Source: Candidatus Pacearchaeota archaeon (GTDB taxonomy: Archaea; Nanobdellota; Nanobdellia; Pacearchaeales; GW2011-AR1). Taken from it: a stretch of DNA of 64,000 nucleotides. The notes under the pieces are model-generated. The model was not told the DNA's origin. It saw only the letters and a list, made by a program, of their open reading frames with translations, and searched no databases. Position numbers and translations under genes: made by a program. This document shows, piece after piece, positions 11,448 to 64,000 of this stretch; positions within the stretch are counted from its first letter, which is position 1, and each line of letters begins with the position of its first letter. The stretch covers positions 302,449 to 366,448 of the forward strand of contig JBAZJQ010000001.1 of the NCBI GenBank assembly GCA_041651235.1, in the 5' to 3' direction.

Positions 11448-12359
11448 TCACTCTGTGAAAAATTCCACAACATCTTTATCTTTTACAATATGTTTTAATC
11501 CTACTTTTTGATTTGGGAATTTGCAAGAAGGACCAGTTATTTTTGCATATTTAACTTTTTTTGAATATCCATGGAGAATTTTTTCTGCAACATCTTCTAG
11601 AGTTGAATTTGGTTGTAGAATAACCGGGCGATTGTCTTGTTTTTTTCCAGGATGTCTTGTATACACTTTAATAATCTCAAATGAATTGAGAATTTTTTCT
11701 TTTAATTCTTCTATTCCTTCTTTAGTAAATGTAGAAATCATAACAAAATTATATCTTTTCGACCTTAGTGTTTCTTTTATTTTTCTTTTTGTTTCTAAAT
11801 CATATAACTCTATTTTATTGAAAACAATAATTAGGGGTTTATTAATATTTTTTAGTTTATCTAAAATTTCTTTTATTTCATGTATTTTTTCAGCAATTAT
11901 CAATATAGTGTCTGTTGTACTTAAGATCCCTTTATTAAAATTTTCAGATGCAATTGGAGGGGTATCTATTATTTGTATCGGACAACCAAGATAATTTAAG
12001 GTCCCAATTTCGGGTTTTATTGTTGTGAATCCATAGCTTGCTATCTTTGGATCTGCATTGGTTAGCGCTTTTAGAACCGAAGATTTTCCTGAATTAGTTA
12101 GTCCTACTAAAACTGCTTGAAGTTCTTCTTTTTTAATTCCTTTTTTTCCACTTGATTTTTTATTTTTTTTATTTTTAGCAAGTTCCTGCTTTAATTTTTT
12201 ATATCTATTTCTAATATTGGCTCTAAGTGCTTCTGCACTTTTATGTTTGGGCATAGTCCTAATCATCTCTTCTAATGCAGATAATCTTTCTTCATCTGTG
12301 GAAGCTTCATGATATTTTCCTTCTGCATTTGCATATTCAAAATTAGCATTAATTGGCAT
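11448..12359 (-). CDS. DRG/Obg-family GTP-binding protein with C-terminal TGS domain
   Basis: G1 GLTNSGKSS, YGFTT switch, FNKIE (G4-like), TGS-like tail (IKVYTRHPGKK..PVIL..STLEDVAEKILHG..VKYAKITGPS..QKVGLKHIVKDKDVVEF). G3 reads DTPP rather than DxxG. Confidence 0.8.
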   Translation of the reverse strand: MPINANFEYANAEGKYHEASTDEERLSALEEMIRTMPKHKSAEALRANIRNRYKKLKQELAKNKKNKKSSGKKGIKKEELQAVLVGLTNSGKSSVLKALTNADPKIASYGFTTIKPEIGTLNYLGCPIQIIDTPPIASENFNKGILSTTDTILIIAEKIHEIKEILDKLKNINKPLIIVFNKIELYDLETKRKIKETLRSKRYNFVMISTFTKEGIEELKEKILNSFEIIKVYTRHPGKKQDNRPVILQPNSTLEDVAEKILHGYSKKVKYAKITGPSCKFPNQKVGLKHIVKDKDVVEFFTE

Positions 12360-12403
12360 AGGATAACTAATCTAAAAGAATATATAAGTATTACTCATGA
12401 AAG

Positions 12404-12462
12404 TTACCCCGCATATTCGAAGTATTTATATAGTATTTTTAATATATTTTATTGCGGGGTAA
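12404..12462. promoter_or_regulatory. GC-rich 10-bp inverted repeat bracketing an AT-rich 39-nt spacer in a divergent intergenic region
   Basis: TTACCCCGCA (12404-12413) and TGCGGGGTAA (12453-12462) are perfect reverse complements. The spacer contains TATA-like ATTTATATA. Lies between the divergently transcribed GTPase and the 1700-aa gene. Confidence 0.5.
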
Positions 12463-12487
12463 TTATTGTTTAATTGGTTTTGGAAAG

Positions 12488-12620
12488 ATGGTGCATAAAA
12501 AATATATACAAACTTTCTTTAGAAAAGACAAGTTTGAACAAAGAATAACTTTTTCGATAAAAGTTAAATCAAAATCAAATATATTTTTATAATATAAAAA
12601 TGGTGCATAAAAAATATATA
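12488..12620 (+). mobile_element. hairpin element copy A, flanked by a 21-bp duplication of the host start-codon region
   Basis: ATGGTGCATAAAAAATATATA at 12488-12508 and again at 12600-12620. The intervening 91 bp shares its first ~70 nt with copies at 41728, 49180 and 50713. Confidence 0.75.
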
Positions 12621-15600
12621 AAAAGAGACGGAAAGATATTTGGGCCTTATTTATATGAGAATTACAGAGAAAATGGAGTTACTAAAACTAGATATCTTGG
12701 AATAGGCAAGAGCAGAAAATTGCGGGTTAATAAGATATTATTTATTGTTTTAGGGTTATTTTTAGTTGCTTTAATTTTGGGAGGGATTTTTTTACCTAAA
12801 GCTAATTTTTCTTTAGAAAATTTAAAAGGAGAGTTATTTAGCGAACAATTTGATGTTTCTGTGAGTATTGCAAATAATCATGCCCCTGAATTTTTAGATA
12901 TAGATAAAGATATTTTTGTTTGTGAAAATAGGGATTTAAATTATTTTTTTAAAATTACTGATTTTGATGGGGATGAACTAACTTCTTCTCTAAGTGATTT
13001 AGATCCCTTTTATATGGGGGAGTGTAATCGGATGAATAATAATGATTTTGAATGTAATATTGTTTCTTGGGTATTAAATAAAGAAGACCATATTAAACCC
13101 AAACAAATTCCTGGAGAAGGTTGGGCAACTTATCCTGAAGAAATAACTATCAGTGATGGAGATTCTGCTAATTATTTTAACACAAATATAGTTGTTATTG
13201 AAGTTAATAACGCCCCTAATTTAACAAATATTCCTACACAAACTGTTTGGACAAAGGGAGATGATAGTTTTTTTAATTATCAAGTTAAAGTAAATGATAA
13301 AGAAGAAGGAAATGAATTTTTAGGCAAACTTAAATTTAATTTAAGTTTTTTAGATTCTACTAGTTTTTTTAATATTAATTCAACTGGTTTTATGAAATTT
13401 AATGCAACTAATAGGAATGATTTAGTTGGGGTGTATAATTTAAGGGTTTGTGTTAATGACAGTGGATTAACTAACACTATTCATCCAAATATTAGTCTTT
13501 GTTGGAATGAGGGACAAAATGCAGATCCTAAATTTTCTTGTAATGATTTTGGTTTAACAATTACTAATAATAATCGCCCTCCTAATATTACTTCTTATTA
13601 TCCGAATTTAACTTTTAGCACCGATAGTATCAATGAGTTGTATTTTAATATTAGCAAATATGATCCTGATTGGACTATCCCGGATTCTTATTGGTATCTC
13701 GATGGTTCTTTAGCACAATATGTTGAAGGTAGGCAGGGAGATTATGTTGATGAGTTTATATACGCTTTCGGATGTGGAATTTCTGGAGAACATAAATTAA
13801 TGGTAGTTGTTAGTGATGGCCTATTAAATTCTTCAGTTCAATGGAATATTAGTGTTATTAATGTCCCCTGTCCAACTACTCCTTCAGGAGGGGGTGGTGG
13901 CGGAGGCGGTGGAAAATTGGTTTGTAAAGAGAAATGGGTTTGTGGGGACTGGAGCCAGTGTGAGAATTTTGCGTTGTCTTCAAATCAATTAGATTACGAG
14001 ACTAATTTATTAATTAAAGAGAGATGTTCTTTATTTAATTGGGATGCTTCTTTTTGCGGATTTCAAACTAAAAATTGTGTTGACTTAAAACATTGTAAGA
14101 CGAATTTAACTAAGCCTGGAAATTTACAGGAATGCTATTACACTGTAAATCCTAGTTGTAATGATGGAATTAAAAATTGTCATGAGGGAAGCTGCGAGGT
14201 ATTAATTGATTGCGGAGGTCCATGTGATAATTGTCCTAGTTGTAATGATGGAATTAAAAATCAAGGTGAAACTGGAGTTGATTGTGGAGGGCCATGCAAG
14301 GTATGTTTAGAAAAACCAATTGCACCATTTTTATTTAAATCATTTGTAACTTATTCTTTAATTGCTTTTGTTGTTTTAATATTATTTTTAGCTGGAAGCC
14401 AGATTTGGAAATATTTTTCATTTAAAAAACTTGAAAAGAAGAAAAAACAAGAAGCAATTGAATCTAGCCAAATTGTCAATTTATTTTTTATAGTTTTGGT
14501 TGTTGTTGCATTAATTTTAGCTAATAGTTACATTATGGATTTTTCTGGCTCTAAGAATCTTCCTGATTTAAATCAGGGAGTTTTGTATAGCTATGGGTTA
14601 TTAAATTCTGTTTTTTCTAATTTAGGAATTTTTATTAGTGGTCCAATTGTCAGTGGAGATGGATTAACTCAATTAATTATTGGAGATGATACTGATGAAG
14701 AAGAAGGAAAAATAAGATATACTATTTGCAATGACGCTTTTTGTGTGAAAAAAGAAAAACCCTCTTCTAGTGTTTGGACAGTTAATTTTTATGCAATTTT
14801 TGAAAATAATGGTGGTGGAGCAATTAGTGATGGGGCTTGTCAGATAAGATTTGATGGTCCAGAGGGTTATTCTGGATGGAGTGATATGGTTTTTAATACA
14901 GACCGATATGCATTTTCAAGTACATTTGATTATAAAGGAGAATGGGATTTTGAAATACAGTGTTCTAAAGATAGTTCGAGTGTTTCAACAACTGAACCTT
15001 TTGTAATAACCAACACTGTTCCATATATTATTCAAACTGCAGCAGGACACATTGATTTTAATGGAGATGGAGACAGGGATGATTTGCAGTGCAATGAAGA
15101 TGAACTTTGTTATTATGATTTCAGTAAAAATGTTAGCGATGACGATACTAATGATGATTGGGTTTATGGAGTCAATACAATCAATACCACTTTAACTAAG
15201 TATAGTTTAGATGCAGACACTGGAATGCTTATAATTAATATCACTAATTCTATTAATACTGGGAATAATAAACAAATTGAATTAAATGTAAAGGATAGTG
15301 AAAGTACATTAAGATCTGCATTATTATTTGTAGATGTTAAAAATGTAAATGATGCCCCAGTTTTTATTAATTTAGAAAATAAAACATTTAATTCAGGAGA
15401 TTTGTTTGAATATATAATTCAAGTGGGGGATGAGGAAAATAATTATCCATTTAAATTTAATATAGATTACTTAGATTGTTCTGTTGCTGATTGCGATTTG
15501 TTTGATGGGCAATATACTTTTGATGCAAGAAATGGAAAATTAAATATTAGTTTTAGTCCTGTTGAGGCAGATGTTGGAAGTTATCTAATTAACTTTAGTG

Positions 15601-17702
15601 TAATGGATAATAGTTCTTTGGGAAATAAAACAACTAGTCAAGTGGTTAATTTCACAGTGGAAATTCCTATTTGGAGACAAGACATAGAATTAAATTATGG
15701 ATTAACAGAAGATCAATTGTTTTCTTTGGATTTAACTACTTTAGCTCTTAATCCAATAGGAATTAGTTTTTCTAATAAAACCAATGATATGCCTAGCTTT
15801 TCTTTAAATGAAGAGGGAATAATTAGCTTTAGCCCTAAAGATATAGATATAGGATACCATGAAATAGAAATTATTGCAAGCAATTCTGAAGCTAGTTCTT
15901 TAAGAACATTTAATTTCACTGTAACTAATATCAATGATTTACCTGTCTTTGGTTCCTTGCAAATACAAGGAGCAATAATTAGCGGAAAAAATTATTCTGT
16001 TTTTGAAAATACAGACACAAAAGTTTCTTTGTTTGTTAATGATGATGATTTAATTATTCCTGCTTCTCAAAAAGCATTTTATAATGAAGATTTTAATGTT
16101 AGCTTAAAAATTATTGGGCCAAATAGTTCCTTATTTAAGTTTAATTCAGGAGAATTATTTTCTACAAATCAAAAGCTATATTCTGTGAATTTTATTCCGA
16201 GAGCTGCGGATGTTGGACAGTATAATCTAAGTATTAATGTAACGGATAATTCTAATCAGTCTTTTGCTTATGGATTTATTTTAAAGATTTTAGCAAGGCC
16301 CTATGATCCTCCGAATATCACTTTCCCAGATAGTTTAAGAGAATTTAGTTTAATTGAAAATCAGAGTGCAAATTTAATTTTTAAAGCAAACCATACGGTA
16401 GGGGATAATCTGAGATATAAATTTTATATTAATGGAACATTAAAAGATAGTTTGCTTTATTATGGAGATAATACGGATTTAATTTGGAATTGGGCCCCCT
16501 TATTTACAGAGGAGACTTATGACAATAAAACTAATTTAACCCTTATTGTTGAAAATCCTCATTATCCTGAGTTTAATATTAGCAGAACCTGGAATTTAAC
16601 TATTAATCATTCTAATGCCCCCCCTGAATTTATTGATGAAATTCAACCAAGGAGTTTTCCGTATAATCTTGTTTTAGAAGAAAATTTAGGTTATTATTTT
16701 AGAGATATAGACCATGAAGATTTGCATTATAAACAAAATGTTAGTTTCGTAGTTAGTAGTAATTCTAGCCCTAGTGATATTATTATTGGAGAGGTTTCAG
16801 AAAATTGGACAATTACCTTATCTTCTTCTAGACTTGCTCCCTTTAAAGAAACATTAAATATTACTGCTTATGATTTAGATGAAAATGGAAACTATCTAAG
16901 AAATGTCACTAGTAATAATTTTGTTATTGAATTACTTGAACCTGAAAAAGAACCTGTTCCAACTCCAAGTCCTTCTCCGGATAGTGGTGGTGGAGGTGGA
17001 GGAAGCTCTAAAATCATTGCATTAAAGATAATTGTTCCTGGAAAAATTTCTGCTTTTCAAGGAGATAAAATTGATATTCCTATTTCTCTCTTAAATACTG
17101 GTAAAACCAGTTTTAAGGATATTGGTTTGTTTAGTTCTGCATTTAAAGATGGAAATTCATCTAATGAAATAACTACTTCTTTAGATAGAAATTCTTTTAG
17201 TGTTCTAAATCCCGGACAACAAGAAAATTTAACTTTATCCGCTATATTAAATACTGATAAGCTGGGAGATTATGAGATACTTATTAATTTTAGTTCTAAA
17301 AATCCGATTTATTTTGATTGGGGGAAAATTTATATTAATTTACAAAGTATTAATGAGTCTAATGTAGGAGATTTAATTGTGTTTACAGAGGAGCTTATTG
17401 TTGAAAATCCTGCTTGTGTAGAAATAACTGAAATCATAGATGAAGCAAAAGAATTGCTTGATAGAGGGGATTTAATTAATGCGAAAGTTAAAACCGAAGA
17501 AGCAATTGCTGCATGTAAAGAAAGTATTTCTCAGGTAGGCATTCCCAGCAGAAGTAAATCTATGTTTTATGCTTTAAGTATTTATTTGGCTGTAGCAATT
17601 GCAGGAGCTTTTGCAATCGGGATTATTTATTATATTGTCCAAAGAAGAAAAATTAGAAAAAAATATAGGGAGGTGATTGAAGAATCTAAAAACTCTGAAT
17701 AA
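12600..17702 (+). CDS. giant (1700 aa) cadherin-like repeat surface protein
   Basis: N-terminal KYIKRDGKIFGPYLYENYR motif plus TM. Repeated domain ends of the cadherin type (NNHAPEF, VNNAPNL, NNRPPNIT, VNDAPVF, INDLPVF, SNAPPEF). Cys-rich CNDGIKNxxExxxDCGGPC modules, poly-Gly and PT linkers, an internal TM pair and a C-terminal TM with basic tail. Confidence 0.85.
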   Translation: MVHKKYIKRDGKIFGPYLYENYRENGVTKTRYLGIGKSRKLRVNKILFIVLGLFLVALILGGIFLPKANFSLENLKGELFSEQFDVSVSIANNHAPEFLDIDKDIFVCENRDLNYFFKITDFDGDELTSSLSDLDPFYMGECNRMNNNDFECNIVSWVLNKEDHIKPKQIPGEGWATYPEEITISDGDSANYFNTNIVVIEVNNAPNLTNIPTQTVWTKGDDSFFNYQVKVNDKEEGNEFLGKLKFNLSFLDSTSFFNINSTGFMKFNATNRNDLVGVYNLRVCVNDSGLTNTIHPNISLCWNEGQNADPKFSCNDFGLTITNNNRPPNITSYYPNLTFSTDSINELYFNISKYDPDWTIPDSYWYLDGSLAQYVEGRQGDYVDEFIYAFGCGISGEHKLMVVVSDGLLNSSVQWNISVINVPCPTTPSGGGGGGGGGKLVCKEKWVCGDWSQCENFALSSNQLDYETNLLIKERCSLFNWDASFCGFQTKNCVDLKHCKTNLTKPGNLQECYYTVNPSCNDGIKNCHEGSCEVLIDCGGPCDNCPSCNDGIKNQGETGVDCGGPCKVCLEKPIAPFLFKSFVTYSLIAFVVLILFLAGSQIWKYFSFKKLEKKKKQEAIESSQIVNLFFIVLVVVALILANSYIMDFSGSKNLPDLNQGVLYSYGLLNSVFSNLGIFISGPIVSGDGLTQLIIGDDTDEEEGKIRYTICNDAFCVKKEKPSSSVWTVNFYAIFENNGGGAISDGACQIRFDGPEGYSGWSDMVFNTDRYAFSSTFDYKGEWDFEIQCSKDSSSVSTTEPFVITNTVPYIIQTAAGHIDFNGDGDRDDLQCNEDELCYYDFSKNVSDDDTNDDWVYGVNTINTTLTKYSLDADTGMLIINITNSINTGNNKQIELNVKDSESTLRSALLFVDVKNVNDAPVFINLENKTFNSGDLFEYIIQVGDEENNYPFKFNIDYLDCSVADCDLFDGQYTFDARNGKLNISFSPVEADVGSYLINFSVMDNSSLGNKTTSQVVNFTVEIPIWRQDIELNYGLTEDQLFSLDLTTLALNPIGISFSNKTNDMPSFSLNEEGIISFSPKDIDIGYHEIEIIASNSEASSLRTFNFTVTNINDLPVFGSLQIQGAIISGKNYSVFENTDTKVSLFVNDDDLIIPASQKAFYNEDFNVSLKIIGPNSSLFKFNSGELFSTNQKLYSVNFIPRAADVGQYNLSINVTDNSNQSFAYGFILKILARPYDPPNITFPDSLREFSLIENQSANLIFKANHTVGDNLRYKFYINGTLKDSLLYYGDNTDLIWNWAPLFTEETYDNKTNLTLIVENPHYPEFNISRTWNLTINHSNAPPEFIDEIQPRSFPYNLVLEENLGYYFRDIDHEDLHYKQNVSFVVSSNSSPSDIIIGEVSENWTITLSSSRLAPFKETLNITAYDLDENGNYLRNVTSNNFVIELLEPEKEPVPTPSPSPDSGGGGGGSSKIIALKIIVPGKISAFQGDKIDIPISLLNTGKTSFKDIGLFSSAFKDGNSSNEITTSLDRNSFSVLNPGQQENLTLSAILNTDKLGDYEILINFSSKNPIYFDWGKIYINLQSINESNVGDLIVFTEELIVENPACVEITEIIDEAKELLDRGDLINAKVKTEEAIAACKESISQVGIPSRSKSMFYALSIYLAVAIAGAFAIGIIYYIVQRRKIRKKYREVIEESKNSE

Positions 17703-22578: not shown

Positions 22579-22802
22579 TGTGTGTGAGACTTAAAAGTGG
22601 TGAGTGAAAATTGTAGTTAGAAATACTAATCAGAGAAGCTTAGAGAAAAATTTAATTGAAATTCTTAATCATAATTATTTTTGTTTTAAATTCCGGGACA
22701 GGTCAGTCTCACACACAATCCCTGCTTGGCCTGTCCTTTTTTCATTTTTATTTAAATTCTCCGGGGGGCCAGTCTCACACACACAATCACTTGGCTCCCT
22801 GG
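22579..22802 (+). promoter_or_regulatory. structured leader / candidate ncRNA: two tandem GC-rich hairpins plus an upstream complement of their loops
   Basis: Hairpin 1 is GGACAGGTC (22696-22704) / GGCCTGTCC (22728-22736). Hairpin 2 is CCGGGGGGCC (22761-22770) / GGCTCCCTGG (22793-22802). Both loops begin AGTCTCACACACA. TGTGTGTGAGACT at 22579-22591 is their exact complement. Confidence 0.55.
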
Positions 22803-22812
22803 TTTTTGTAAA

Positions 22813-40888: not shown

Positions 40889-41194
40889 ATGAAAGTAAAA
40901 AAAATTACAGAGGTTATAGGGAAAAAGGTATTTACAGATACTGGTGACTACTTTGGGGAAGTTGAAGAGTCTAACTTAGTTGAAAATAAGGTTGATGGAT
41001 GGAGAATTAGAATTGCAAGTTCAATGGGCAATTTTTTAGGGGGTGCTAAAGGGGTGATAATTCCACATCAGTTTGTGAAGGCTGTTGGAGATATTGTAAT
41101 TGTAAGCAGAGCTAATCTGCCTTTAGATGAAGGTGAGGAAACAGTTGAGCAAACAGTTGATTTATCTAGTGGAAGCAGTTCCCTTGAGATGTAA
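40889..41194 (+). CDS. PRC-barrel domain protein
   Basis: VIGKKVFTDTGDYFGEVEESNLVENKVDGWRI...VIIPHQFVKAVGDIVIV pattern. Stop overlaps the next start (TAATG). Confidence 0.7.
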   Translation: MKVKKITEVIGKKVFTDTGDYFGEVEESNLVENKVDGWRIRIASSMGNFLGGAKGVIIPHQFVKAVGDIVIVSRANLPLDEGEETVEQTVDLSSGSSSLEM

Positions 41195-41709
41195 TGGTCG
41201 AGTCTATTTTTCAGTCAATTATTTTTATGGATTACATTTTGCCATTTGTATTAATATTTACTCTTGTTTTTGCTATTTTGCAAAAAACAAAATTATTGGG
41301 AGATAGTGTAAAACAAATTAATGCATTAGTGGGATTAGTTGCAGGATTGATTTTGATTGCCTTCCCTTTTTCAAGAGATATAGTTTTAATATTAATGCCT
41401 TTTTTAGCTGTTTCAGCTACTATCTTATTAGTTTTTATGTTATTATATGCTTTTGTGTGGGGACATTCAGGAGATGCAATTGGTCATAAATGGGTGAAAA
41501 TCGTTATAGGGATTCTTTTAGCAATTGGATTAATTAGTGTGGTTTTATATGCTGCAGGATTATGGGAACCTATTTATGATTTCTTGTTTAATAGAGGGGA
41601 TTCAGGACAACTTTGGGTTAATATTATTTTAATTGTTATTATGGCTGGTGCAGTTATCGCAGTTATTCTTCCTAAAGACAAGGGAGAAGATAAATCCAAA
41701 AAAGAATAG
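41194..41709 (+). CDS. 4-TM membrane protein, paralog 1 of 3
   Basis: Shares a block with the next two genes (hydrophobic helix, then K..LG(D/N)..(K)(G/Q)(V/I)NA(L/I)V.L.(V/A)GL). Confidence 0.65.
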   Translation: MVESIFQSIIFMDYILPFVLIFTLVFAILQKTKLLGDSVKQINALVGLVAGLILIAFPFSRDIVLILMPFLAVSATILLVFMLLYAFVWGHSGDAIGHKWVKIVIGILLAIGLISVVLYAAGLWEPIYDFLFNRGDSGQLWVNIILIVIMAGAVIAVILPKDKGEDKSKKE

Positions 41710-41727
41710 GAAGATATATAAATAAAT

Positions 41728-41764
41728 CAAACTTTCTTTAACAAAGATAAGTTTGAATAAAGAA
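41728..41764 (+). repeat. hairpin element copy B (core only)
   Basis: CAAACTTTCTTTAACAAAGATAAGTTTGAATAAAGAA. Same stem as the other copies with a different loop; about 34 nt upstream of the 41798 start. Confidence 0.7.
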
Positions 41765-41797
41765 AATTAAATAACTAAAAAAGATAAAATAAAAAAG

Positions 41798-42295
41798 ATG
41801 GCTTACAATTTGGGTGCTTGGAATGTAACAGATATTTTGAATACTTGGGCAGAGGCAGGAGTATTCGCTTATATTATTCCAGGATTAATGATCTTTGCAT
41901 TAGTTTATGGAATTCTAATGAATGCAAAAATTCTTGGAAATAATAAAGGAGTTAATGCGATTGTTGCTCTTTCAGTGGGATTATTATCTTTGCAATTTGA
42001 TTGGGTAGCTAATTTTTTTGCAACTATCTTTCCTTATGCTGGGATGGGAATTGCTGTTTTATTAGTTGCTATGATTTTAATGGGGTTTATTGTTGAAGAC
42101 GAAAAGAAAGCTAAATGGATATTTTTTGGAATAGGAGCTTTAATATTTTTAGTTGTGATTATTTATAGTTTAAGTGATTTTGCTTGGTTTGGGGGTTATT
42201 CAGGGGTGGATTGGGCTCCCTGGATTGTTTTAATATTATTGGTTGCTGCAGGGGTTGTTGCAGTTGTATTGGGTGGAGATAGTAAATCTAAATAG
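41798..42295 (+). CDS. 4-TM membrane protein, paralog 2 of 3
   Basis: ALVYGILMNAKILGNNKGVNAIVALSVGLLSL block. Confidence 0.65.
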   Translation: MAYNLGAWNVTDILNTWAEAGVFAYIIPGLMIFALVYGILMNAKILGNNKGVNAIVALSVGLLSLQFDWVANFFATIFPYAGMGIAVLLVAMILMGFIVEDEKKAKWIFFGIGALIFLVVIIYSLSDFAWFGGYSGVDWAPWIVLILLVAAGVVAVVLGGDSKSK

Positions 42296-44087: not shown

Positions 44088-44222
44088 TTTACTTATTATT
44101 AAGGATTAATGGGTTTAAAATTGTTTTTGTTTGAGGATACACAAATCTTTATAACATTAAAATATTTATTTTAAATGAGGTAAAAAGAGAATGTTATTCA
44201 AAATAAATGGGGGAAATAACTG

Positions 44223-46508
44223 ATGTTATTCAAGCCAGGAACGCCGGTTTATGCTTATGAAATTGTTAAAGAAGAAGATGCTCAAGTTATGTATGTTAAT
44301 TATTTAGGGGCTCCCTTAGTGCCTAATCTAACTAATGCAGATATTATGTCCAGCACAGTTGATTTATTAATCCAATCCCCCAATGTTTCTAGGATTGTTT
44401 TTGTACAGCAAAGAAATTATTCTTATGGTTCTGAAGAGGTTTTTGTTTTAAAAGAAATCGCAAATCTTTATGTTTATCTTACTAAACAAGAAAATATTCT
44501 CTCCCCTATTAAATTATCTATAATGAATTCTGAATATCTTGGGCAGAGACATAATGATGTTAGTTATCTTTTAATGACTTTAAAGAGAGATCCTATTGCT
44601 TGTTATTATGAATTAAAGAGATTTTTAAAACAAGAAAAATTAAATTTACTTAATACTCCTGAAGAGCTTAAAGTTGATCAGCTAAGTTATATTCGGTTAT
44701 TAGAAAAGTTTTTTTCTTTATTAGGACAATCAAAATTAATAAAGCAAGCTGAAATTTATTTTTCAAATTATTCTTTTGGAGACAGAGAAATTTATAATCA
44801 TGTATTTAGGACAAATATAATTCCTAATTTTACTTTTACTAGATTGGTAAGTAATCTCCCTGAAAACGCAGAGATTGTACAGCAATATGAATTGGGATCT
44901 GATTCAAGTAAATCTCTTGTAACTATTTTGAAAAAAGAAGAAGAAACTAAATATATTTATCATCTAATGCCTCCAGAATATGCCTTAGAAGAAGATAAAC
45001 AGGAATTGCTTAATCTTGCAAGAAATGTTTTAATTGAACATCAACCAAAAGCAGAAGAGTTTACTGATCCTGAAAAAACACGGCAAGTATTTTTTAATGT
45101 AGCAAGAGATTTGTTAAGTGAGCTGTCAGTTAGCAGAAAAGTAAAATTAAGTTATGATGAATTAAATACTTTAGCTAAAATTTTAGTTAGACACACTATT
45201 GGATTTGGATTAGTAGAAATATTATTGCAAGATAAAAATATCCAGGATATTGTATTGAATGCACCTATTTCTTCTAATCCTGTCTTTTTAAGGCATCAGA
45301 ATTTTGATGAATGCATAACTAATATCCTTCCAAGTACTGAAGATGGAGACTCGTGGGCAGCAAAATTTAGAATGATTTCAGGAAGACCCCTCGATGAAGC
45401 GAATCCTATTTTAGATACTGATTTGGGTTTGGGAGATATAAGGGCGAGAGTTGCAGTTATTCAGCAACCACTTTCACCAAAAGGATTAGCTTATGCAATT
45501 AGAAGGCATAGGGAAGAGCCATGGACCCTGCCTCTCTTTATTAAATATAAAATGCTGAATAGTTTTGCAGCAGGCTTAATGAGTTTTTTAATTGATGGAA
45601 GCAGGACTATTTTAATTGCAGGAACAAGAAGTTCAGGTAAAACTTCTTTGTTAGGAAGTTTAATGCTGGAGATTATGCCGAAGTACAGAATAATTTGTAT
45701 CGAGGATACTTTGGAATTACCTGTAGAAGCATTGAGAAAATTACAGTATGATATTTTAAGGATGAAAGTTAGAAGCAGTTTATTAAAAACAACAACTGAA
45801 ATTGGAGCTGATGAAGGTATAAGAACTTCGTTAAGATTAGGAGACTCAAGCTTGATTGTTGGAGAAGTAAGAAGTTTGGAGGCTCAGGCACTTTATGAAG
45901 CAATGAGGGTTGGTGCTTTAGCAAATGTTGTTGCAGGAACAATTCACGGAGCTTCACCATATGCTGTGTTTGACAGAGTTGTTAATGATTTGAAAGTACC
46001 TGTTACTTCATTTAAAGCAACTGACTGCATTATTGTTGCTAATCCAGTTAAAACTCCTGATGGATTAAAATCAATGAAAAGAATTTTGCAGATAAGTGAA
46101 GTAAGAAAACATTGGACAGTAGATCCTGAACAAGAAGGGGGCTTTGTTGATTTATTGAAGTATAATGTTGAAAAAGATGAATTAGAAGCAAGCGAAGAAT
46201 TAATTAATGGGGATTCTGAAATAATAAAATCTATTGCTGGAAGTGTTAAAGGATGGGCTGGTGATTGGGATGCTGTTTATGATAATATTTTATTAAGAGG
46301 AAAAGTGAAGCAGGAAATTGTTGATGTTGCTGAAAAAACAAAGAAACCAGAATTATTAGAATCCCCATTCAATAGTTTGTCTAATAATATGTTTCACCAA
46401 TACTCTAAAGAAATTCAAGAAGAAGTTGGATTGCCTGTAAGTGATAGGGTTTTTCCTTTATGGCAGGATTGGTTAAAAAGACAGGTTCAGGGAAAAAAGA
46501 TATCATAA
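44223..46508 (+). CDS. type II/IV secretion family ATPase (FlaI/PilB/VirB11-like) with long N-terminal extension
   Basis: Walker A AGTRSSGKTS about 465 residues in, IICIEDTLEL, Walker B/Asp box LIVGEVRSLEA, His box AGTIHGAS. Confidence 0.88.
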   Translation: MLFKPGTPVYAYEIVKEEDAQVMYVNYLGAPLVPNLTNADIMSSTVDLLIQSPNVSRIVFVQQRNYSYGSEEVFVLKEIANLYVYLTKQENILSPIKLSIMNSEYLGQRHNDVSYLLMTLKRDPIACYYELKRFLKQEKLNLLNTPEELKVDQLSYIRLLEKFFSLLGQSKLIKQAEIYFSNYSFGDREIYNHVFRTNIIPNFTFTRLVSNLPENAEIVQQYELGSDSSKSLVTILKKEEETKYIYHLMPPEYALEEDKQELLNLARNVLIEHQPKAEEFTDPEKTRQVFFNVARDLLSELSVSRKVKLSYDELNTLAKILVRHTIGFGLVEILLQDKNIQDIVLNAPISSNPVFLRHQNFDECITNILPSTEDGDSWAAKFRMISGRPLDEANPILDTDLGLGDIRARVAVIQQPLSPKGLAYAIRRHREEPWTLPLFIKYKMLNSFAAGLMSFLIDGSRTILIAGTRSSGKTSLLGSLMLEIMPKYRIICIEDTLELPVEALRKLQYDILRMKVRSSLLKTTTEIGADEGIRTSLRLGDSSLIVGEVRSLEAQALYEAMRVGALANVVAGTIHGASPYAVFDRVVNDLKVPVTSFKATDCIIVANPVKTPDGLKSMKRILQISEVRKHWTVDPEQEGGFVDLLKYNVEKDELEASEELINGDSEIIKSIAGSVKGWAGDWDAVYDNILLRGKVKQEIVDVAEKTKKPELLESPFNSLSNNMFHQYSKEIQEEVGLPVSDRVFPLWQDWLKRQVQGKKIS

Positions 46509-49162: not shown

Positions 49163-49597
49163 ATGAGAAATAAAAGAGGTAAACTTTCTTTAGGAAAGAC
49201 AAGTTTAAACAAAGAAAAACTAAATATGAAAAAGGTAAACCAAAATCTGTTTTTATCTGAAGATAAAAAAGGTTTTGAAATGGCTATTAGTACTCTAATC
49301 TTAATGATTATAGGAGTAGTTTTGCTTATCTCTCTAATAACTTTTTTTACAATGGGAAGTGCAGAATTTATTAAAACAATAAAAAGTTATGTCAGTTATT
49401 CAAATGTAGATAATGCTGTTGAATCTTGTAACATTTTAGTTGATACTAATCAGCAAAATACTTATTGCTGTGAGAAAAGAATCGTTAAATATTATGAAGA
49501 GGGAGATAAAAAAGAAGAAAGTTTTAGTTGTTATGATTTAATCCCCTTAAAATTGAGTGATAATTTAAAAGAAATGAGTTGTAATGTTGAGTGCTAA
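49163..49597 (+). CDS. type IV pilin-like protein whose signal-peptide region carries hairpin element copy C
   Basis: ...EDKKG-FEMAISTLILMIIGVVLLISLITFF class III pattern. The element is read through in frame. Alternative start ATG at 49226. Confidence 0.7.
   Translation: MRNKRGKLSLGKTSLNKEKLNMKKVNQNLFLSEDKKGFEMAISTLILMIIGVVLLISLITFFTMGSAEFIKTIKSYVSYSNVDNAVESCNILVDTNQQNTYCCEKRIVKYYEEGDKKEESFSCYDLIPLKLSDNLKEMSCNVEC
49180..49256 (+). mobile_element. hairpin element copy C (inside coding frame)
   Basis: TAAACTTTCTTTAGGAAAGACAAGTTTAAACAAAGAA...AAAGGTAAACCAAAATCTGTTTTTAT. Flanked by an imperfect 13-nt repeat, AAATAAAAGAGGT (49168-49180) and AGATAAAAAAGGT (49261-49273). Confidence 0.7.
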
Positions 49598-49772: not shown

Positions 49773-50681
49773 ATGAATAAAAAAGCAGATACAGGGCTTA
49801 CTATGAATAAATTAATTACTTTATTTATAATTGCAATAGTAATTATTGTAGTTGCTATAGGTTCAATAAAATATGGGAAAGATATTTTTGATAAGATTAA
49901 AACCATTTTTCCGGGTTTTAATCAGACTGCGGGGAATAATGAGTTAATTCAACCTGCAACTATTCTAAATATTAAAACGAATGTTTTATTAAATGATGGA
50001 GAGGGAAGATGCATTGTTTATGAAGAGAAAAATCCTTTAATTAAGGATTATGGGATAAGAGAAAATAAATTATGGAGATTTGAAAATGGGAAGTGGATAG
50101 ATATAGACACAACGGCTAATTTAGATGATAATCAAATGACGAAATGCGAAGCTGTTCAAAAGTTAATTGCTGATGAAAAAGAATTAATGCAAGAGATTAA
50201 AGATTATTATTATCAGTTTTATAATGATGTTTGTATTCCTACTTTTAATGATCCAAGCAACTATATTGATTCTGAGATGAATGTTAAATGTGGATTTTTA
50301 AAAGAGCTTTTTGAAGAAAATTTCTTTAGTAGCGCAAGTTTTAAAGATATCGAAAGTATAGATGATGATAACCTTAAAAGTGAAATATATTTTTTAGTTC
50401 AATTGATTATAAAACAAGATGAGAGCTTAAAAAATGAAATTAGTTTTAGTGGAAAATTAAATATTTTAATGCTTCCTGCGGGTAACTTAAATCAGATATT
50501 GTCGAGTACATTAGATGGGAATTATGCAACAAATGGAAAAGAAATTTATACATTATCTGGGGTAAAGTGGATTGAAATTGAACAAGAGGATCACCCCTAT
50601 CTATTTATTGAAGGATGCTCAAAAACAAATAAACAGATCAAAGCAGATTTATTCAATGCATGTTATGTTGATGAGAAATAA
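49773..50681 (+). CDS. type IV pilin-like protein (302 aa)
   Basis: MNKKADTG-LTMNKLITLFIIAIVIIVVAIG class III pattern. Confidence 0.7.
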   Translation: MNKKADTGLTMNKLITLFIIAIVIIVVAIGSIKYGKDIFDKIKTIFPGFNQTAGNNELIQPATILNIKTNVLLNDGEGRCIVYEEKNPLIKDYGIRENKLWRFENGKWIDIDTTANLDDNQMTKCEAVQKLIADEKELMQEIKDYYYQFYNDVCIPTFNDPSNYIDSEMNVKCGFLKELFEENFFSSASFKDIESIDDDNLKSEIYFLVQLIIKQDESLKNEISFSGKLNILMLPAGNLNQILSSTLDGNYATNGKEIYTLSGVKWIEIEQEDHPYLFIEGCSKTNKQIKADLFNACYVDEK

Positions 50682-50823
50682 AATATAAAATGAAAAGATT
50701 AAATAAAAAAGACAAACTTTTTTTAGTAAAGACAAGTTTGAACAAAGAATACCTTTTTAGAAAAAAGGTAAACCAAAATCTTTTTTTATTTAAAATATAA
50801 AATGAAAAGATTAAATAAAAAAG
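50679..50823 (+). mobile_element. hairpin element copy D, flanked by a 33-bp duplication of the host start region
   Basis: TAAAATATAAAATGAAAAGATTAAATAAAAAAG at 50679-50711 and 50791-50823. The intervening 79 bp is the element, with both hairpins intact. Confidence 0.8.
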
Positions 50824-51362
50824 CAGAAGAGGGAACTTTTTTAGGTGTAAAAGTAGTTAATTTAGTTATTGCGGTATTGTGTATAATTATTCTTATTACT
50901 CTAGGAGCTAAATTATTTAAATTATTTTCAGAAGAAGGCAATGTTAAACAAGCAGAAGATATACTTAATTTGATTAACGATAAAATAAGTTATTTAACTG
51001 GAGGGGAGTATACTGAAAATTTTTTATACATGACTATTTTTCCTCCTGAAGATTCTGGCTGGTTTTTAAAAAGTTACCAGGAAAGTTTTTTTCCTGAAAA
51101 AGAATGTGTTGGCAAGTTTAAGAGTTGTTTGTGTATTTGCAACTCTAAAGATTGTATTGGTTTAAAAGCATGCAAGGGAATGGGGAAATATACCTTAGTT
51201 GAGGGGGATTTTAAAGAAGAGATTCTTATAGGAGGACATGTTAACCCCCAACCAGGCTCTGGGGTTTTTACAACTAAAGAAATAATTCAATTATCAACTG
51301 CTCAGCAGGAGTTAACTTTAACTAAATCAGATAATAAAGTTATTATAACCGAGAAAAAATGA
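50802..51362 (+). CDS. type IV pilin-like protein (186 aa)
   Basis: MKRLNKKAEEG-TFLGVKVVNLVIAVLCIIILITLG. Confidence 0.7.
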   Translation: MKRLNKKAEEGTFLGVKVVNLVIAVLCIIILITLGAKLFKLFSEEGNVKQAEDILNLINDKISYLTGGEYTENFLYMTIFPPEDSGWFLKSYQESFFPEKECVGKFKSCLCICNSKDCIGLKACKGMGKYTLVEGDFKEEILIGGHVNPQPGSGVFTTKEIIQLSTAQQELTLTKSDNKVIITEKK

Positions 51363-58557: not shown

Positions 58558-59502
58558 GTGAAGATGGTAGCTGGAAATTATAAACAATTAATTGAATTTA
58601 TTTCAGAAAATTCTGGAGTTTCTATAGATGAACTTGAAAGAAGGGTAGAGGCAAAACAAGCTAAATTATCGGGTTTAATCAGCAAAGAAGGTGCTGCCCA
58701 AGTTATTGCAGCTGAATTAGGCATTAATTTTGATAAGCAAATGATGAAGATATCTCAAATTGTTAATGGGATGAAGAAAATTAATGTTATTGGCAAGGTA
58801 ATTAGTTTATTTCCTATAAGGGAATACAACAAAAATGGTAGAAGTGGAAGAGTTAGTAATTTTATACTTGCAGATGATACGAGTAATATAAGGACTGTTT
58901 TGTGGGATGAAACTCATATAGAATTAATTGCAAAAGGGCAGATAGGAGAAAATTCAGTTATTGAAATAAGCAATGCAACACTGAGAAATGGAGAACTGCA
59001 TTTAACTAGTTTTTCTGAGATTAAGTTAAGTTCTCAGAATATTAATAATATTGTTGTTTCAAAGCCAGTTTTTAAAAAGAATATTTCAGAATTTAATGCA
59101 AATGATTCTGTTTCTACAAGAGCAGTTATTGTTCAGATATTTGAACCGAGATTTTTTGAAATTTGCCCTGAATGCAAGAAAAAAGCAAGTGAATTAGGAG
59201 AATGCATGACTCATGGCAAGATTGTCCCTGAAAGAAGGGCTTTGCTTAATTTTGTTATTGACGATGGCAGTGATTCTATAAGGTCAGTTATGTTTTCAGA
59301 TGTAATTGAAAAAATAATCCCTTTAAATGAATTAGATAATTCAGAATCATTTTCAATTAGAAAAAAGGATTTGCTTGGAAAAGAAATGATTATACATGGG
59401 AATGTTAGGAAAAATCAGTTATATGGGAATAATGAGTTTATTATTTCTGATTTAAAAGATATTGAACTGGATAAGTTAATTGAAGAATTAGAAAAAAATT
59501 AA
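58558..59502 (+). CDS. replication protein A (RPA)-like ssDNA-binding protein with zinc ribbon
   Basis: N-terminal LSGLISKEGAAQVIAAELGI domain, OB fold (INVIGKVISLFPIREY...ILADDTSNIRTVLWD), CPECKKK...C..HG. The ATG at 58564 is an alternative to the GTG start. Confidence 0.8.
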   Translation: MKMVAGNYKQLIEFISENSGVSIDELERRVEAKQAKLSGLISKEGAAQVIAAELGINFDKQMMKISQIVNGMKKINVIGKVISLFPIREYNKNGRSGRVSNFILADDTSNIRTVLWDETHIELIAKGQIGENSVIEISNATLRNGELHLTSFSEIKLSSQNINNIVVSKPVFKKNISEFNANDSVSTRAVIVQIFEPRFFEICPECKKKASELGECMTHGKIVPERRALLNFVIDDGSDSIRSVMFSDVIEKIIPLNELDNSESFSIRKKDLLGKEMIIHGNVRKNQLYGNNEFIISDLKDIELDKLIEELEKN

Positions 59503-59604
59503 ATTTTTTAATTTTGATAATCTATTCGGACATAAGCTGAGCAGAGGAGATACTTAAGATAAGTTTAATTTGTTTTAAAAATCATTATAATATTGAATTG
59601 TTCT

Positions 59605-60069
59605 TTAAATTATCCAAACAAAAAGCATAGCTAAAACATCTATTAAAATTAAAGCAATAAACAAACCATCTTCAATTCTTCCTCCTGAACGAATAAATCC
59701 AATACTCTTTTGTTTTAACGGCCAGAAAGGCTGAATTCCTTCTTTTGTAAAACTATCACAGATCAAATGAACTGAATAACCTACAAAAAAACCTAAGCTT
59801 GCAATCGGAAAGAATATAGATAAAATAATTGAAAGTGCAATTGCTGTTGTAAAGCTGTGAATAATTCCTCTATGGTTAACTAACCATTGCAATGGTCGAA
59901 AAATTAAATGTCTACCCCAACTGGAAAAACTATTATCTAAATCGGGGATTATTGTAGCTAATAAAACCATCCCTACAAAAATAATTTGATTATTAACATG
60001 TTCTACAAATAAAATTATAAACAAGAATGCAACAGCTAAATGGGTTCTAAGCATCATCTCTTTTATCAC
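59605..60069 (-). CDS. YdjM/DUF457 membrane-bound metal-dependent hydrolase
   Basis: RTHLAVAF, IIPDLD, HRGIIHS, HLICDSFTKEGI. Confidence 0.8.
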   Translation of the reverse strand: MIKEMMLRTHLAVAFLFIILFVEHVNNQIIFVGMVLLATIIPDLDNSFSSWGRHLIFRPLQWLVNHRGIIHSFTTAIALSIILSIFFPIASLGFFVGYSVHLICDSFTKEGIQPFWPLKQKSIGFIRSGGRIEDGLFIALILIDVLAMLFVWII

Positions 60070-60149
60070 CTTAAAATTAAAAGATAATTTAGTTTATAAG
60101 ATTAATGAAAAGCAATTAAGTTTTTAAATTCAATTAATCCAAGAATTTT

Positions 60150-60470
60150 ATGAAATTTTTTAAAAAATATGAAAGAACAAGAGAGATTCATTTACAACCT
60201 ATCCTAGAATTAGCAAAACTTGGGGCGCAGGTAGCTAAGAATTATAAAGGAAAAAATATAGAGATGTTATTGACCCCTTTAAATCGTAATTTGAGACTAA
60301 CTGAGCCAATTAATCTTCTGAGTAGTACGCTTCAAGTAAGTTATAGTATTGGAAAATTTAAAGCAGCAAATTATGTAAAAGTTTCAGTAGAAGGAGAATT
60401 AAAAAAAGAAGAATTAGAAGAGATTGCAGACAATATTGGAAGTGTTTTTGATAAAGAGAAACATGTTTAA
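60150..60470 (+). CDS. hypothetical protein
   Basis: 106-aa ORF in its own slot upstream of radA; no motif recognised. Confidence 0.45.
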   Translation: MKFFKKYERTREIHLQPILELAKLGAQVAKNYKGKNIEMLLTPLNRNLRLTEPINLLSSTLQVSYSIGKFKAANYVKVSVEGELKKEELEEIADNIGSVFDKEKHV

Positions 60471-60548
60471 TTCTTTATAAATTGAATATTTCGAACATAT
60501 ATAACAAATATAAACAATGTTTATATATTGAAATTGGATTTTTAAGAT

Positions 60549-61532
60549 ATGGCTAAAAAAGAAAAAGAAGAAAATAAGGAAATGAAGCTTTCTGATTTGC
60601 CTGGGGTTGGACCTGCTGCTATTGAGAAATTAGAAGCTGCAGGTATTTTTGATTTAATGGGAATTGCTGTTTTAGGGCCTAAAGAATTATCTGAAATGGC
60701 AGGAATGGGAGAAGCTGCTGCAAGAAAGGCAATTCAAGCATCAAGAAAAATGATGGATTTAGGATTTCAGTCAGGATTAGAATTTGCAACTAAAAGAGAG
60801 GAAATTAATCATATCACAACTGGAAGTCAGAATTTTAATAATTTGTTAGGGGGAAAAGGAGTTGAAACCAAATCAATTACAGAGGCTTTTGGAGCTTATG
60901 GTAGTGGAAAAACTCAGTTGGGTTTGAGTTTAGCTGTAAATGTCCAATTGCCTTTGGAAATGGGGGGATGTGAGGGAAAAGCAGTTTACATTGACACAGA
61001 GGGGACATTTAGACCTGAGAGAATAAAGCAGATTGCAGAAGCAAAAGGAGCAAATCCTGAAAAAGTTTTGCAGAATATTTTAGTTGCAAGAGCATTTAAT
61101 TCTGATCATCAGATTTTGCTTATAGATAAAATTGGTGAGTTAATTAAAAATGGAGAACCAATAAAAATAGTTATTGTGGATAGTTTAACTGCTCATTTTA
61201 GAGCAGAATTTTCAGGAAGAGGACAGCTAGCAGATAGGCAGCAGAAATTAAATAAATATCTGCATAATTTAATGAAAATGGCAGAGCAGTTTAATTTAGC
61301 TGTTTATGTTACTAATCAGGTTATGGCAAATCCTGCAATGATGTTTGGAGATCCTACAACTGCAATTGGTGGAAACATTGTGGGACATGCTTCAACTTAT
61401 AGATTATATTTAAGAAGAAGCAAGAAAAATTCAAGAGTTGCAAAATTAATTGACAGCCCTAATTTGCCTGATAATGAGTGTATTTTTTATGTTGGAAAAA
61501 AAGGAGTTAGTGATGATGAAGATGCTGAATGA
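60549..61532 (+). CDS. radA: DNA repair and recombination protein RadA
   Basis: N-terminal HhH (LPGVGPAAIEKLEAAGI), Walker A GAYGSGKTQ, VYIDTEGTFRPERI, Walker B IVIVDSL. Confidence 0.93.
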   Translation: MAKKEKEENKEMKLSDLPGVGPAAIEKLEAAGIFDLMGIAVLGPKELSEMAGMGEAAARKAIQASRKMMDLGFQSGLEFATKREEINHITTGSQNFNNLLGGKGVETKSITEAFGAYGSGKTQLGLSLAVNVQLPLEMGGCEGKAVYIDTEGTFRPERIKQIAEAKGANPEKVLQNILVARAFNSDHQILLIDKIGELIKNGEPIKIVIVDSLTAHFRAEFSGRGQLADRQQKLNKYLHNLMKMAEQFNLAVYVTNQVMANPAMMFGDPTTAIGGNIVGHASTYRLYLRRSKKNSRVAKLIDSPNLPDNECIFYVGKKGVSDDEDAE

Positions 61533-61572
61533 TTTTCGTAATCTTTATTAAGTTAAGTTATTTTTAGTTATT

Positions 61573-61953: not shown

Positions 61954-61999
61954 TCCTAAGGATTAACTCCCTGACGTTTTCCTCGCGATATAGAAATTA

Positions 62000-62725: not shown

Positions 62726-62796
62726 TAAATAGTATAAGAGGATGGTATTTTAAAACTTATCTCAAATAGAAATCCTAAGGAGAAAAAGGCAACTCT

Positions 62797-63981: not shown

Positions 63982-64000
63982 TTCACCTCCTCCCCACTAA

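Follow-up and report, generated by a model that had tools for sequence, protein, structure and literature searches.

How did the gene for a 1700-residue surface protein (12600-17702) come to have its start written twice? This question is raised by positions 12488-12620 of the 64,000-nt stretch of Candidatus Pacearchaeota DNA analysed here (contig JBAZJQ010000001.1), which is referred to as the window. The first 21 nt of the gene, ATGGTGCATAAAAAATATATA (the ATG and six codons), lie at 12600-12620 and are repeated exactly at 12488-12508, and between the two copies there is a structured element, here called E, which belongs to a multi-copy family. The genomes of DPANN archaea are tiny, experimental genetics is almost lacking for these organisms, and descriptions of their non-coding elements are few. 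It is argued below, with a probability that we put at roughly 60%, that 12488-12620 represents a recent insertion of one copy of a DPANN family of two-hairpin elements of about 67 nt. The best reading of E is as a mobile, non-autonomous structured leader cassette, with a mechanism unlike that of a classical miniature inverted-repeat transposable element (MITE).

The 21-mer has no other match in the window at up to three mismatches, and two matches were found in none of 100 shuffled sequences. The upstream copy is designated direct repeat 1 (DR1) and the copy at the true start of the gene DR2. The copy of E between them, copy A, is 68 nt long (12509-12576; this and the window features of the family described below are on the + strand) and scores 92.6 bits (E-value 6e-14) against a covariance model (CM) of the family. 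It is predicted to fold into a first hairpin, H1, in which 12509-12520 pairs with 12524-12536 to give a stem of 11-12 bp with one bulged C and a 3-nt loop, followed by a junction GAACAAAGAATA, a second hairpin, H2 (12546-12553 with 12559-12566), and a single-stranded 3' tail TAAATCAAAATC. The predicted energy is -12.4 kcal/mol (z = -2.7), and both stems are also marked by covariation in the family. A preliminary description of this locus had reported the 21-bp duplication, a four-copy family, the bulged stem with its 3-nt loop and the second stem, and all of these are recovered by exact matching, consensus, nhmmer, CM and fold prediction. It had assigned the whole of the intervening 91 bp to the family, which is correct for the first 68 (12509-12576), whereas the last 23 (12577-12599), AAATATATTTTTATAATATAAAA, are specific to this copy. 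An alternative pairing of CAAAGAA with TTCTTTG, also suggested there, appears in no predicted fold, and the columns concerned are invariant. The copy-specific tail contains an inverted copy of the end of the repeat, here called X' (12579-12588), complementary in reverse to 12498-12507 of DR1 and to the corresponding bases of DR2. A 10-bp closing helix is predicted for it in both the minimum-energy and the centroid fold, and it is predicted to close a three-way junction, as is the X' of another window copy (copy D, below). Readings of the junction as tRNA-like, as a hammerhead or as a K-turn were set aside, since no such motifs were seen by eye and Rfam gave no hit.

The state of the locus without E can be seen in relatives. 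The protein starts MVHKKYIKRDGKIFGPYLYENYRENG…, an N-terminus kept in 14 homologues, and homologues of its first 300 residues share the sequence MVHKKYIKRxGKxFGPYLYENYRENGxTKTRYLG. Three of the corresponding loci (L093, L094 and L095) have a divergent DRG-type GTPase gene upstream, as does the window (11448..12359). In L094, L095/L096 and L097 the start is uninterrupted, running …AAAAG|ATGGTGCATAAAAAATATAT… (also written …(GGTTTTGTAAAAG)|ATGGTGCATAAAAAATATATTAAAAGAG…), and E, the tail and the second start are all missing. Such empty sites, foreseen in the preliminary description, are thus present in syntenic orthologues. The window sequence upstream of DR1 aligns with the sequence upstream of these starts, the preceding …TTGCGGGGTAATTATTGTTTAATTGGTTTTGGAAAG being orthologous to the upstream of the uninterrupted start in L094 and L095-L097, and therefore DR1 stands in the ancestral context, while the 112 bp made up of E, the 23-nt tail and the repeat are derived. 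The comparison shows that E and its tail were inserted after base +21, that 21 bases were duplicated, and that an intact open reading frame (ORF) was regenerated downstream. X' came with the insertion and is not native. The old start stays beside its native upstream sequence and the intact frame lies beyond it, so the gene survives behind a short upstream ORF (uORF).

Some further features of this gene may be noted here. Many DPANN surface proteins that have otherwise nothing in common begin with the shared N-terminal sequence and a transmembrane helix after it (window 12600-12710; P0001-P0014), and the sequence has no match in Pfam. An inverted motif pair, GTTACCCCGC … GCGGGGTAAC (12395-12470), stands on either side of the TATA-like region in the divergent promoter that separates the GTPase and surface-protein genes, and was noted also in L094, L095, L097, L093, L038 and L030, and GTTAACCCGC/GCGGGTTAAC is seen again upstream of other genes of the MVHKKYIKR family; the pair is probably the operator of a family-specific regulator. 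In an independent assembly of the gene (Logan contig L105, from SRR8542065), position 1 corresponds to window 12524, a break inside H1 of copy A, which is the behaviour expected at a multi-copy repeat or a polymorphic site.

The family to which copy A belongs extends well beyond the window. Its conserved unit is 66-69 nt long and consists of H1, GAACAAAGAA, H2 and TAAAYCAAAAKC, with the consensus CAAACTTTCTTT-loop-AAAGACAAGTTT GAACAAAGAATA [A/C]CTTTT-loop-AAAAG[T/G]T AAAYCAAAAKC, so that E is composed of two related modules, each a hairpin followed by RAAC-AAAR. A pattern that fixed the loop at 3 nt proved too strict, with no hits, and the counts come from a looser, exact scan for the 22-mer AAAGAYAAGTTTRAAYAAAGAA, which found 78 metagenome loci and 13 loci in GTDB genomes. 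The GTDB records are labelled Nanoarchaeia, Nanoarchaeota, Pacearchaeota and Diapherotrites, together with two 'bacterial' metagenome-assembled genomes (MAGs) that are probably mislabelled. Most of these loci are true copies (79 + 15 nhmmer hits; 87 CM hits in 84 sources), and the total is about 87-100 copies from around 75 metagenome contigs and from MAGs. Viral contigs gave a single chance match, inside an ORF. Both hairpins covary: in the CM alignment 98.3% of cells are paired and changes on both sides are seen in 12 of 19 pairs, with none of 500 shuffles as good and slid controls 31-60% paired; the alignment is model-fitted, and the pairing and covariation figures are somewhat flattered by this. 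Conservation is at the level of the nucleotides and not of the peptide, as first proposed. Mismatches of the G·U and A·C types, compared for a strand asymmetry that would distinguish RNA from DNA, number 5 and 3, too few for a result. Rfam 15 gave no hits in the window at the gathering score, an E-value search of 12440-12660 gave only chance-level matches (C/D snoRNA, CRISPR-DR, E >= 1.6), and a literature search by topic and by sequence string found no description of E. The family appears to be undescribed; it is widespread in DPANN archaea and structurally constrained.

Variants of the unit were also found. There is a 'short' subfamily without H2, to which one other copy in the window (copy B) belongs and which a further one (copy C, with a decayed H2) resembles, and H2-like modules stand alone in L093. 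Short forms are arranged in head-to-tail arrays with a 37-nt period (AAAAAGACAAGTTTGAACAAAGAAAAACTATGTTAGA, three copies) in L077 (3613-3740), and also in L015 and L046. In L009 (5301-5368) and L052 (3013-3074) the H2 loop of E has a second two-hairpin module of about 52 nt (…GGCTCCAGAAAATCTAAAGATTTTCTAGG) nested inside it, which the orthologous copy in L071 lacks, and modules related to it replace the left arm of H1 in L027, L041, L065, L088 and L092.

The duplication seen at copy A is a recurrent feature. Exact direct repeats of at least 10 nt are found in 18 of the 49 full copies, compared with 5% of non-cognate pairs. Long repeats are 10-40 nt, shorter ones of 6-8 nt also occur, and about 40% of copies duplicate the start of the downstream gene over 10-40 nt. 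The end of DR1 is always 0-2 nt before E, and the second repeat begins 0-36 nt after it. Where the second repeat does not abut E, the tail opens with X', and an X' of at least 8 nt adjoining E is present in 9 of 49 copies (null, 1.3%). Examples containing G and C are GATAACGCA / TGCGTTATC in a group of NifS-like genes, AAAAAGCAGA / TCTGCTTTTT in a pilin group and GTGAGTAAG / CTTTACTCA at RNase P RNA. X' is often one base off the perfect complement, the deviation being in a homopolymer run (A, D, L040, L031; copy D is described below). The 3' end of E, too, is met directly by the second repeat in L053, L006 and L067. The repeat begins exactly at the ATG in copy A, L047, L056, L006, L063 and L021. 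A TATA-like box lies 26-30 nt upstream in L006/L084, L024, L025 and L092, and NifS-like orthologues without E have one about 30 nt upstream; from this spacing the repeat boundary is likely to be the transcription start at these loci and at the NifS-like genes. The proposal that the duplication always begins at a TATA-defined transcription start was not kept, as it cannot be demonstrated for the surface-protein gene. Simple tandem duplication was also considered, and fits only L028 and L067, copies A and D having no remnant of the element upstream. The 112-bp period common to A and D is a coincidence and not a fixed unit, since periods elsewhere range from 78 to 128.

E is tied to its neighbours in a directional manner. 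Among the 68 copies with enough flanking sequence, 43 are either followed within 60 nt by the start of an ORF on the same strand or contained in such an ORF, as against 1 of 68 in the mirror control. The next ATG is usually 2-7 nt past E, or follows a tail of 10-36 nt. The 5' boundary is placed just as closely: it lies 0-3 nt past the stop codon of an upstream gene, at -1 and +2 nt relative to tRNA 3' ends, 1-4 nt from the 3' ends of RNase P RNA and 23S rRNA, or 0-2 nt past a copy of the start of the downstream gene. In L040 and L076 a copy of E stands on either side of the RNase P RNA gene. The 5 nt preceding E vary (ATATA, AAAGA, TCTGG, GCAGA, TCACT …). The neighbours include genes for pilins, surface proteins, NifS-like proteins, an Fe-S protein and a FlaI-like ATPase as well as RNase P RNA, tRNA and 23S rRNA, and the idea that E specifically targets A-rich signal-peptide starts has therefore been abandoned. 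A role for E as an archaeal promoter was likewise rejected, as genes in the window have TTTATAA some 24-30 nt before the ATG, where E has ATACCTTTTCCG, and the TATA-like tails of copies A and D are too near the ATG to serve as one.

These features bear on the suggestion that E is a classical non-autonomous DNA transposon (a MITE, a repetitive extragenic palindrome (REP) or bacterial interspersed mosaic element (BIME), or a palindrome-associated transposable element (PATE) derived from IS200/IS605), with its transposase elsewhere, ordinary target-site duplications and no host function. An interspersed, multi-copy hairpin repeat without coding capacity, whose direct repeats meet the element exactly at its 5' end (and at the 3' end too in the three loci noted above) and for which an empty site exists, is what such a transposon would look like. 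However, there are no terminal inverted repeats and no conserved target tetranucleotide, the duplication varies from 6 to 40 nt with its second copy at a variable distance from E, orientation is biased by 43 to 1, old copies at orthologous loci are undecayed, and the window proteins scanned include no transposase and no Y1 or REP-associated tyrosine transposase (RAYT) domain. We regard this as a very unlikely account of the family, and classical transposition in general is disfavoured by the lack of inverted termini, the variable duplication and a 3' side that is partly derived from the target.

An insertion among the first codons of a gene needs to be survived, and the long repeats provide a clue as to how this may happen. 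In copy A the DR1 ATG opens a uORF of 34 codons, reported in the preliminary description as a dead end, which runs through E from 12488 to a TAA at 12590-12592 (feature 12488..12592), 7 nt before the true ATG. Any one frame is without stops in only 21-30% of E copies. Nevertheless, every independent long-repeat copy except two double-E loci has a uORF that starts in DR1, crosses E and has its stop within -16 to +14 nt of the true ATG. The position of the first base of the stop relative to the true ATG is -10 nt in A, -4 in D, L056, L075 and L032, -5 in L028, +1 (an ATGA overlap) in L047, L023, L035 and L082, +14 in L053, -14 in L078 and -16 in L021, and the pattern is seen also in L025 and L014. 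Since there are about nine independent loci with a chance of about 0.27 each, it is unlikely that the open frame is accidental. It holds only for the copies with long repeats, and selection for translatability as a property of the whole family was rejected, stops being only mildly depleted relative to shuffled sequences and the frames as often closed as noted above.

We hypothesise that transcription of the surface-protein gene would still start from the native promoter, giving an mRNA that begins with the old ATG. Ribosomes would load there and read the uORF through E in what happens to be an open frame; they would terminate 7 nt short of the true ATG (1 nt short of it in copy D) and re-initiate at the true start, and it is because of this coupling that the gene would tolerate the insertion. 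More generally, we infer from the arrangement of starts and stops that surviving insertions pass ribosomes from the old 5'-proximal ATG to the true start by termination and re-initiation. A different outcome is seen in window copy C, L013, L043, L079 and L087, in which the upstream ATG opens an ORF that continues in frame into a pilin-like gene; the extra residues fall in the leader, and would be expected to be removed by prepilin peptidase.

Once in place, E is retained. Five orthologous NifS-like loci have E in the same position, and four of the five share a private variant of the H1 loop, CTTATAAAG. The copies of E at these loci are 85-97% identical, compared with 71-78% for the adjacent coding sequence and 46-64% for its third codon positions, and H2 alternates between A-U and C-G pairs within the set. 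X' and the true start are paired as GATAAC/GTTATC, GATAAT/ATTATC and GACAAT/ATTGTC, three haplotypes over seven loci without exception, so that X' follows synonymous changes in the paired codons and is perfect with respect to the true start even where DR1 has drifted (L028, L100). The NifS orthologues without E (L101, L103) have the TATA-like box about 30 nt upstream, which suggests that their mRNAs are leaderless, and have no X' and no Shine-Dalgarno sequence. The absence of both there implies that E, X' and the Shine-Dalgarno linker arrived together. L047, at the gene for an unrelated Fe-S protein, has the NifS type of X' and Shine-Dalgarno linker, yet a perfect 25-nt repeat of its own start; the X' of L043 matches the repeat of L079, and both of the L043 repeats have themselves changed. 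These two loci suggest either that E, X' and linker move together to genes resembling the old target, or that the repeats have been homogenised. It may be added that the closest DPANN homologues of the NifS-like cysteine desulfurase are nearly all called as proteins of 160-350 residues (L100-L104; P0016-P0135), with the gene in L100-L103 ending at 218-273 residues, well inside the contig; these short genes may be split, truncated or interrupted by another insertion.

Such retention is what would be expected if E were an immobile, vertically inherited RNA leader acting in cis (regulatory, stabilising, or a 'punctuation' mark for processing), with the repeats serving as mimics of the start that compete for X' in the manner of a switch. 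The near-invariance of stems and junctions at orthologous loci where neutral sites are saturated, the covariation of both hairpins and of X' with the true gene start, the strictly sense orientation, and the location of E on both sides of RNase P RNA (in several contigs) and directly after tRNA and 23S rRNA, like a processing signal, can all be explained in this way. It does not explain the empty site in the syntenic orthologues of the surface-protein gene, nor the perfect repeats of 21, 33 and 40 nt, which span bases that do not pair (the ATG and codons 2-4) and look like recent duplications rather than the result of selection. The genes associated with E share no function and there is no Rfam match, and L047, with a NifS-type X' and linker beside a repeat of its own start, points to transfer of a cassette. 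On balance we consider a purely cis-acting leader to be improbable.

Instead, the favoured reading of a mobile leader cassette combines spread with retention. E would spread in the sense orientation as a unit of E, the short inverted target copy X' and a linker, with a target duplication of variable length that often begins at the ATG, the likely transcription start of a leaderless gene. It would then be kept, with its stems and junctions near-invariant at orthologous loci and X' covarying with the coding sequence to which it is paired, so that E behaves as a structured 5' leader, or as an RNA element between cistrons, that the host has retained. Our preferred guess for the insertion itself is copy-choice or snap-back synthesis, possibly on RNA ends. 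The signature fits such synthesis, in repair or on RNA-derived templates, because the repeat is bounded by the ATG or transcription start, the adjacent inverted copy shows a homopolymer slip, and the junctions with RNA 3' ends are exact. A further reason is that the start of the FlaI-like ATPase gene in the window (44191..44233) has the same anatomy without E. The first 11 nt of this gene, ATGTTATTCAA, at 44223, are duplicated 32 nt upstream, at 44191, with no hairpin element between. The 21-nt gap contains a Shine-Dalgarno-like GGGGG and GAAATAAC, an imperfect inverted copy of the start, and the upstream ATG opens a uORF of 10 codons whose TGA overlaps the true ATG. The orthologue in L060 has E upstream instead.

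The FlaI-like gene also bears on the view that E has no dedicated mobility, the loci being 'templated insertions' made in error-prone repair of breaks near promoters (by microhomology, template switching and snap-back), in which an abundant E is copied as filler. A direct and inverted duplication of a start without E, the one-base homopolymer deviations of X' in A, D, L040 and L031, as if from a slipping polymerase, and the heterogeneous tails are in keeping with this view. Against it, many independent loci show one stereotyped order (DR1, E, X', linker, DR2), in which E is complete and sense-oriented every time, and E is also precisely placed where there is no duplication. We think that repair alone has little chance of being the explanation. 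At the other extreme, E may have a dedicated means of spread by RNA-end-templated or copy-choice synthesis, as a prokaryotic SINE-like 'leader capture' element (SINE, short interspersed nuclear element), a possibility that we offer tentatively and hold to be rather unlikely. In that scheme the 5' end of E would be joined to the 3' end of a transcript (a promoter-proximal stub, tRNA, RNase P RNA or 23S rRNA), snap-back copying would give the inverted target copy, and synthesis would resume at the 5' end of the target transcript. If true, this would convert leaderless genes into uORF-coupled ones, with the host then retaining E as a functional RNA.

Several points weigh against the conclusion that E is a mobile cassette recently inserted at 12488-12620. 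Mobility is deduced from a single comparison of filled and empty sites together with the perfect repeats; no autonomous partner is known, and about 40 window proteins scanned against Pfam include no transposase, as the preliminary description had also stated, and no integrase or reverse transcriptase. The view of the host genome is that of a 64-kb window in a contig of at least 648 kb. In about half of the copies no duplication can be recognised. At the surface-protein gene there is no clear TATA box 24-32 nt upstream of DR1, which makes the argument that the repeat begins at a transcription start a weak one here, and the complementarity of X' at copies A and D involves only A and T, and could be due to chance. 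Repeats are identical within a genome and different between genomes, which needs either gene conversion or repeated re-insertion. Finally, a vertically inherited RNA with a purely functional role would account for the strong conservation at orthologous loci as well as a mobile element would, or better.

The window contains three further copies of E. The 37-nt consensus matches at 12509, 41728, 49180 and 50713, where 0.00 matches are expected, and nhmmer and a CM search with filters off gave the same four copies and no others. The preliminary description had counted these four correctly; it overlooked the 33-bp repeat of copy D, and copies B and C are short or decayed, without an intact H2. Copy B (41728..41797; 42.8 bits) has the short form, H1 followed by GAATAAAGAA. 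It lies 18 nt past the stop of 41194..41709, and its end meets the ATG of 41798..42295. Copy C (49180..49247; 52.4 bits), with the decayed H2, lies within the ORF 49163..49597, in frame with a pilin-like gene, and has a possible decayed repeat, ATGAGAAATAAAAGAGG at 49163 and CTGAAGATAAAAAAGG at 49257. Copy D (with flanks 50679..50823; 87.8 bits) is the closest counterpart of copy A. Its DR1 (50679-50711) is a perfect 33-bp repeat, TAAAATATAAAATGAAAAGATTAAATAAAAAAG, followed by E (50713-50780), a T-rich tail (50781-50790) and DR2 (50791-50823, again TAAAATATAAAATGAAAAGATTAAATAAAAAAG), which holds the ATG (50802) of the pilin-like gene 50802..51362, and the uORF (50690-50800) stops 1 nt before this ATG. 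An orthologue search with the pilin-like protein (WC438_02120), made in order to find an empty site for copy D, returned only the protein itself.

The remainder of the window, which has a G+C content of 27-31%, encodes PolD DP1/DP2, RadA, a Hef-like helicase and nuclease, the DRG-type GTPase, diphthamide synthase, and a type IV pilus locus with an ATPase, a FlaJ-like membrane protein, a prepilin peptidase and many pilin-like genes. A contig of another assembly (L098), compared with 58600-64000, is 94.5% identical to the window over 3.4 kb (60594-64000, from the RadA gene) and about 66% identical just upstream; it has a different set of pilin genes and no copy of E in 20.7 kb, and the relation between the two looks like a mosaic or recombinant between relatives. 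At 22579-22807, upstream of a gene for a 2576-residue protein (ATG 22813), there are two GC-rich hairpins, each followed by a T-run (~22693-22744 and ~22761-22807). Their loops share AGTCTCACACACA, the reverse complement of TGTGTGTGAGACT at 22579-22591, and Rfam gave no hit; a small RNA with its target is one possibility, an attenuator another.

The consequences of these findings are of several kinds. E appears to be an abundant conserved non-coding element of Pacearchaeota and Nanoarchaeota, and is absent from Rfam and from the literature searched. For annotation, gene callers pick wrong starts or fuse E into ORFs, and assemblies break inside it (L105). For translation, duplication of the start together with uORF coupling would provide a route by which a leaderless gene survives an insertion in its first codons. 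As regards mobility, the combination of a long direct repeat of variable length with an inverted copy and exact joins to RNA ends points to a mechanism undescribed for prokaryotic repeats. Since E is placed around the genes for RNase P RNA, tRNA and rRNA, existing metatranscriptomes could be used to test whether it acts in RNA processing or stability.

It remains to compare E with known systems. Like the bacterial REP/BIME, BOX, ERIC and Correia (CREE) repeats, which are known to affect mRNA stability, processing or promoters, E is short, non-coding, hairpin-forming and present in high copy number. As they do, it occupies the tiny intergenic spaces of operons, where it would be transcribed with its neighbours, and it is modular, with a third module in L009 and L052. 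REP/BIME repeats are imperfect palindromes of 20-40 nt with a 5' GT(A)G and an associated RAYT gene, a description that E does not match: it is archaeal (DPANN) and strictly sense, it lacks the GTAG head, inverted pairs and TA duplication, its long duplications of the downstream start are accompanied by an inverted target copy, and no RAYT or transposase is seen in the window. With MITEs E shares small size, lack of autonomy, flanking direct repeats and an interspersed distribution with filled and empty sites between relatives (four window copies and 87-100 in the fetched loci, with L094-L097 empty). MITEs have terminal inverted repeats of about 10 bp or more and fixed duplications of 2-10 nt, whereas the termini of E are CAAACTTT… and …AAAYCAAAAKC, its inverted repeats are the internal hairpins, its duplications vary between 6 and 40 nt, and its old copies are undecayed. 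Nor does E have the fixed tetra- or pentanucleotide 5' of the insert, without duplication, that characterises PATEs derived from IS200/IS605. Of the two suggestions made in the preliminary description, a MITE/REP-like element in the classical sense thus gives way (no terminal inverted repeats, a 6-40-nt duplication and a sense-bound placement), while a portable 5' leader comes close to the family data.

Rickettsia palindromic elements are similar to E in being palindromic repeats of a small AT-rich genome that are sometimes located inside ORFs and translated, as E is within the pilin-like leader peptides (copy C, L013, L043, L079 and L087). They differ from it in sequence, and E is mostly outside mature coding sequence, is read in frames that differ from copy to copy, and is tied to gene starts. 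E has a conserved structured core, as a riboswitch does, and this core covaries, but the functions of the genes next to E are not coherent. The target-primed retrotransposition of SINEs and long interspersed nuclear elements (LINEs), and the U6-L1 chimeric retrocopies, provide an analogy, and no more than that, for variable duplications that often begin at the presumed 5' end of a transcript, for precise joins to the 3' ends of stable RNAs and for an A-rich 3' tail; unlike these, E has no poly-A tail, and no reverse transcriptase was found among the window proteins scanned. The coupling of termination and re-initiation at ATGA operon junctions resembles the E loci in the placing of the stops (-16 to +14, with ATGA itself in L047, L023, L035 and L082) and, in the NifS group, in the pairing of the start region with upstream sequence, and differs in that the uORF at the E loci is made by an insertion which duplicates the gene's own start. 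In kind, E belongs with the small non-autonomous hairpin repeats, a known kind, of which it appears to be an undescribed family, and the anatomy of its insertions is unlike that of the known small repeats of prokaryotes.

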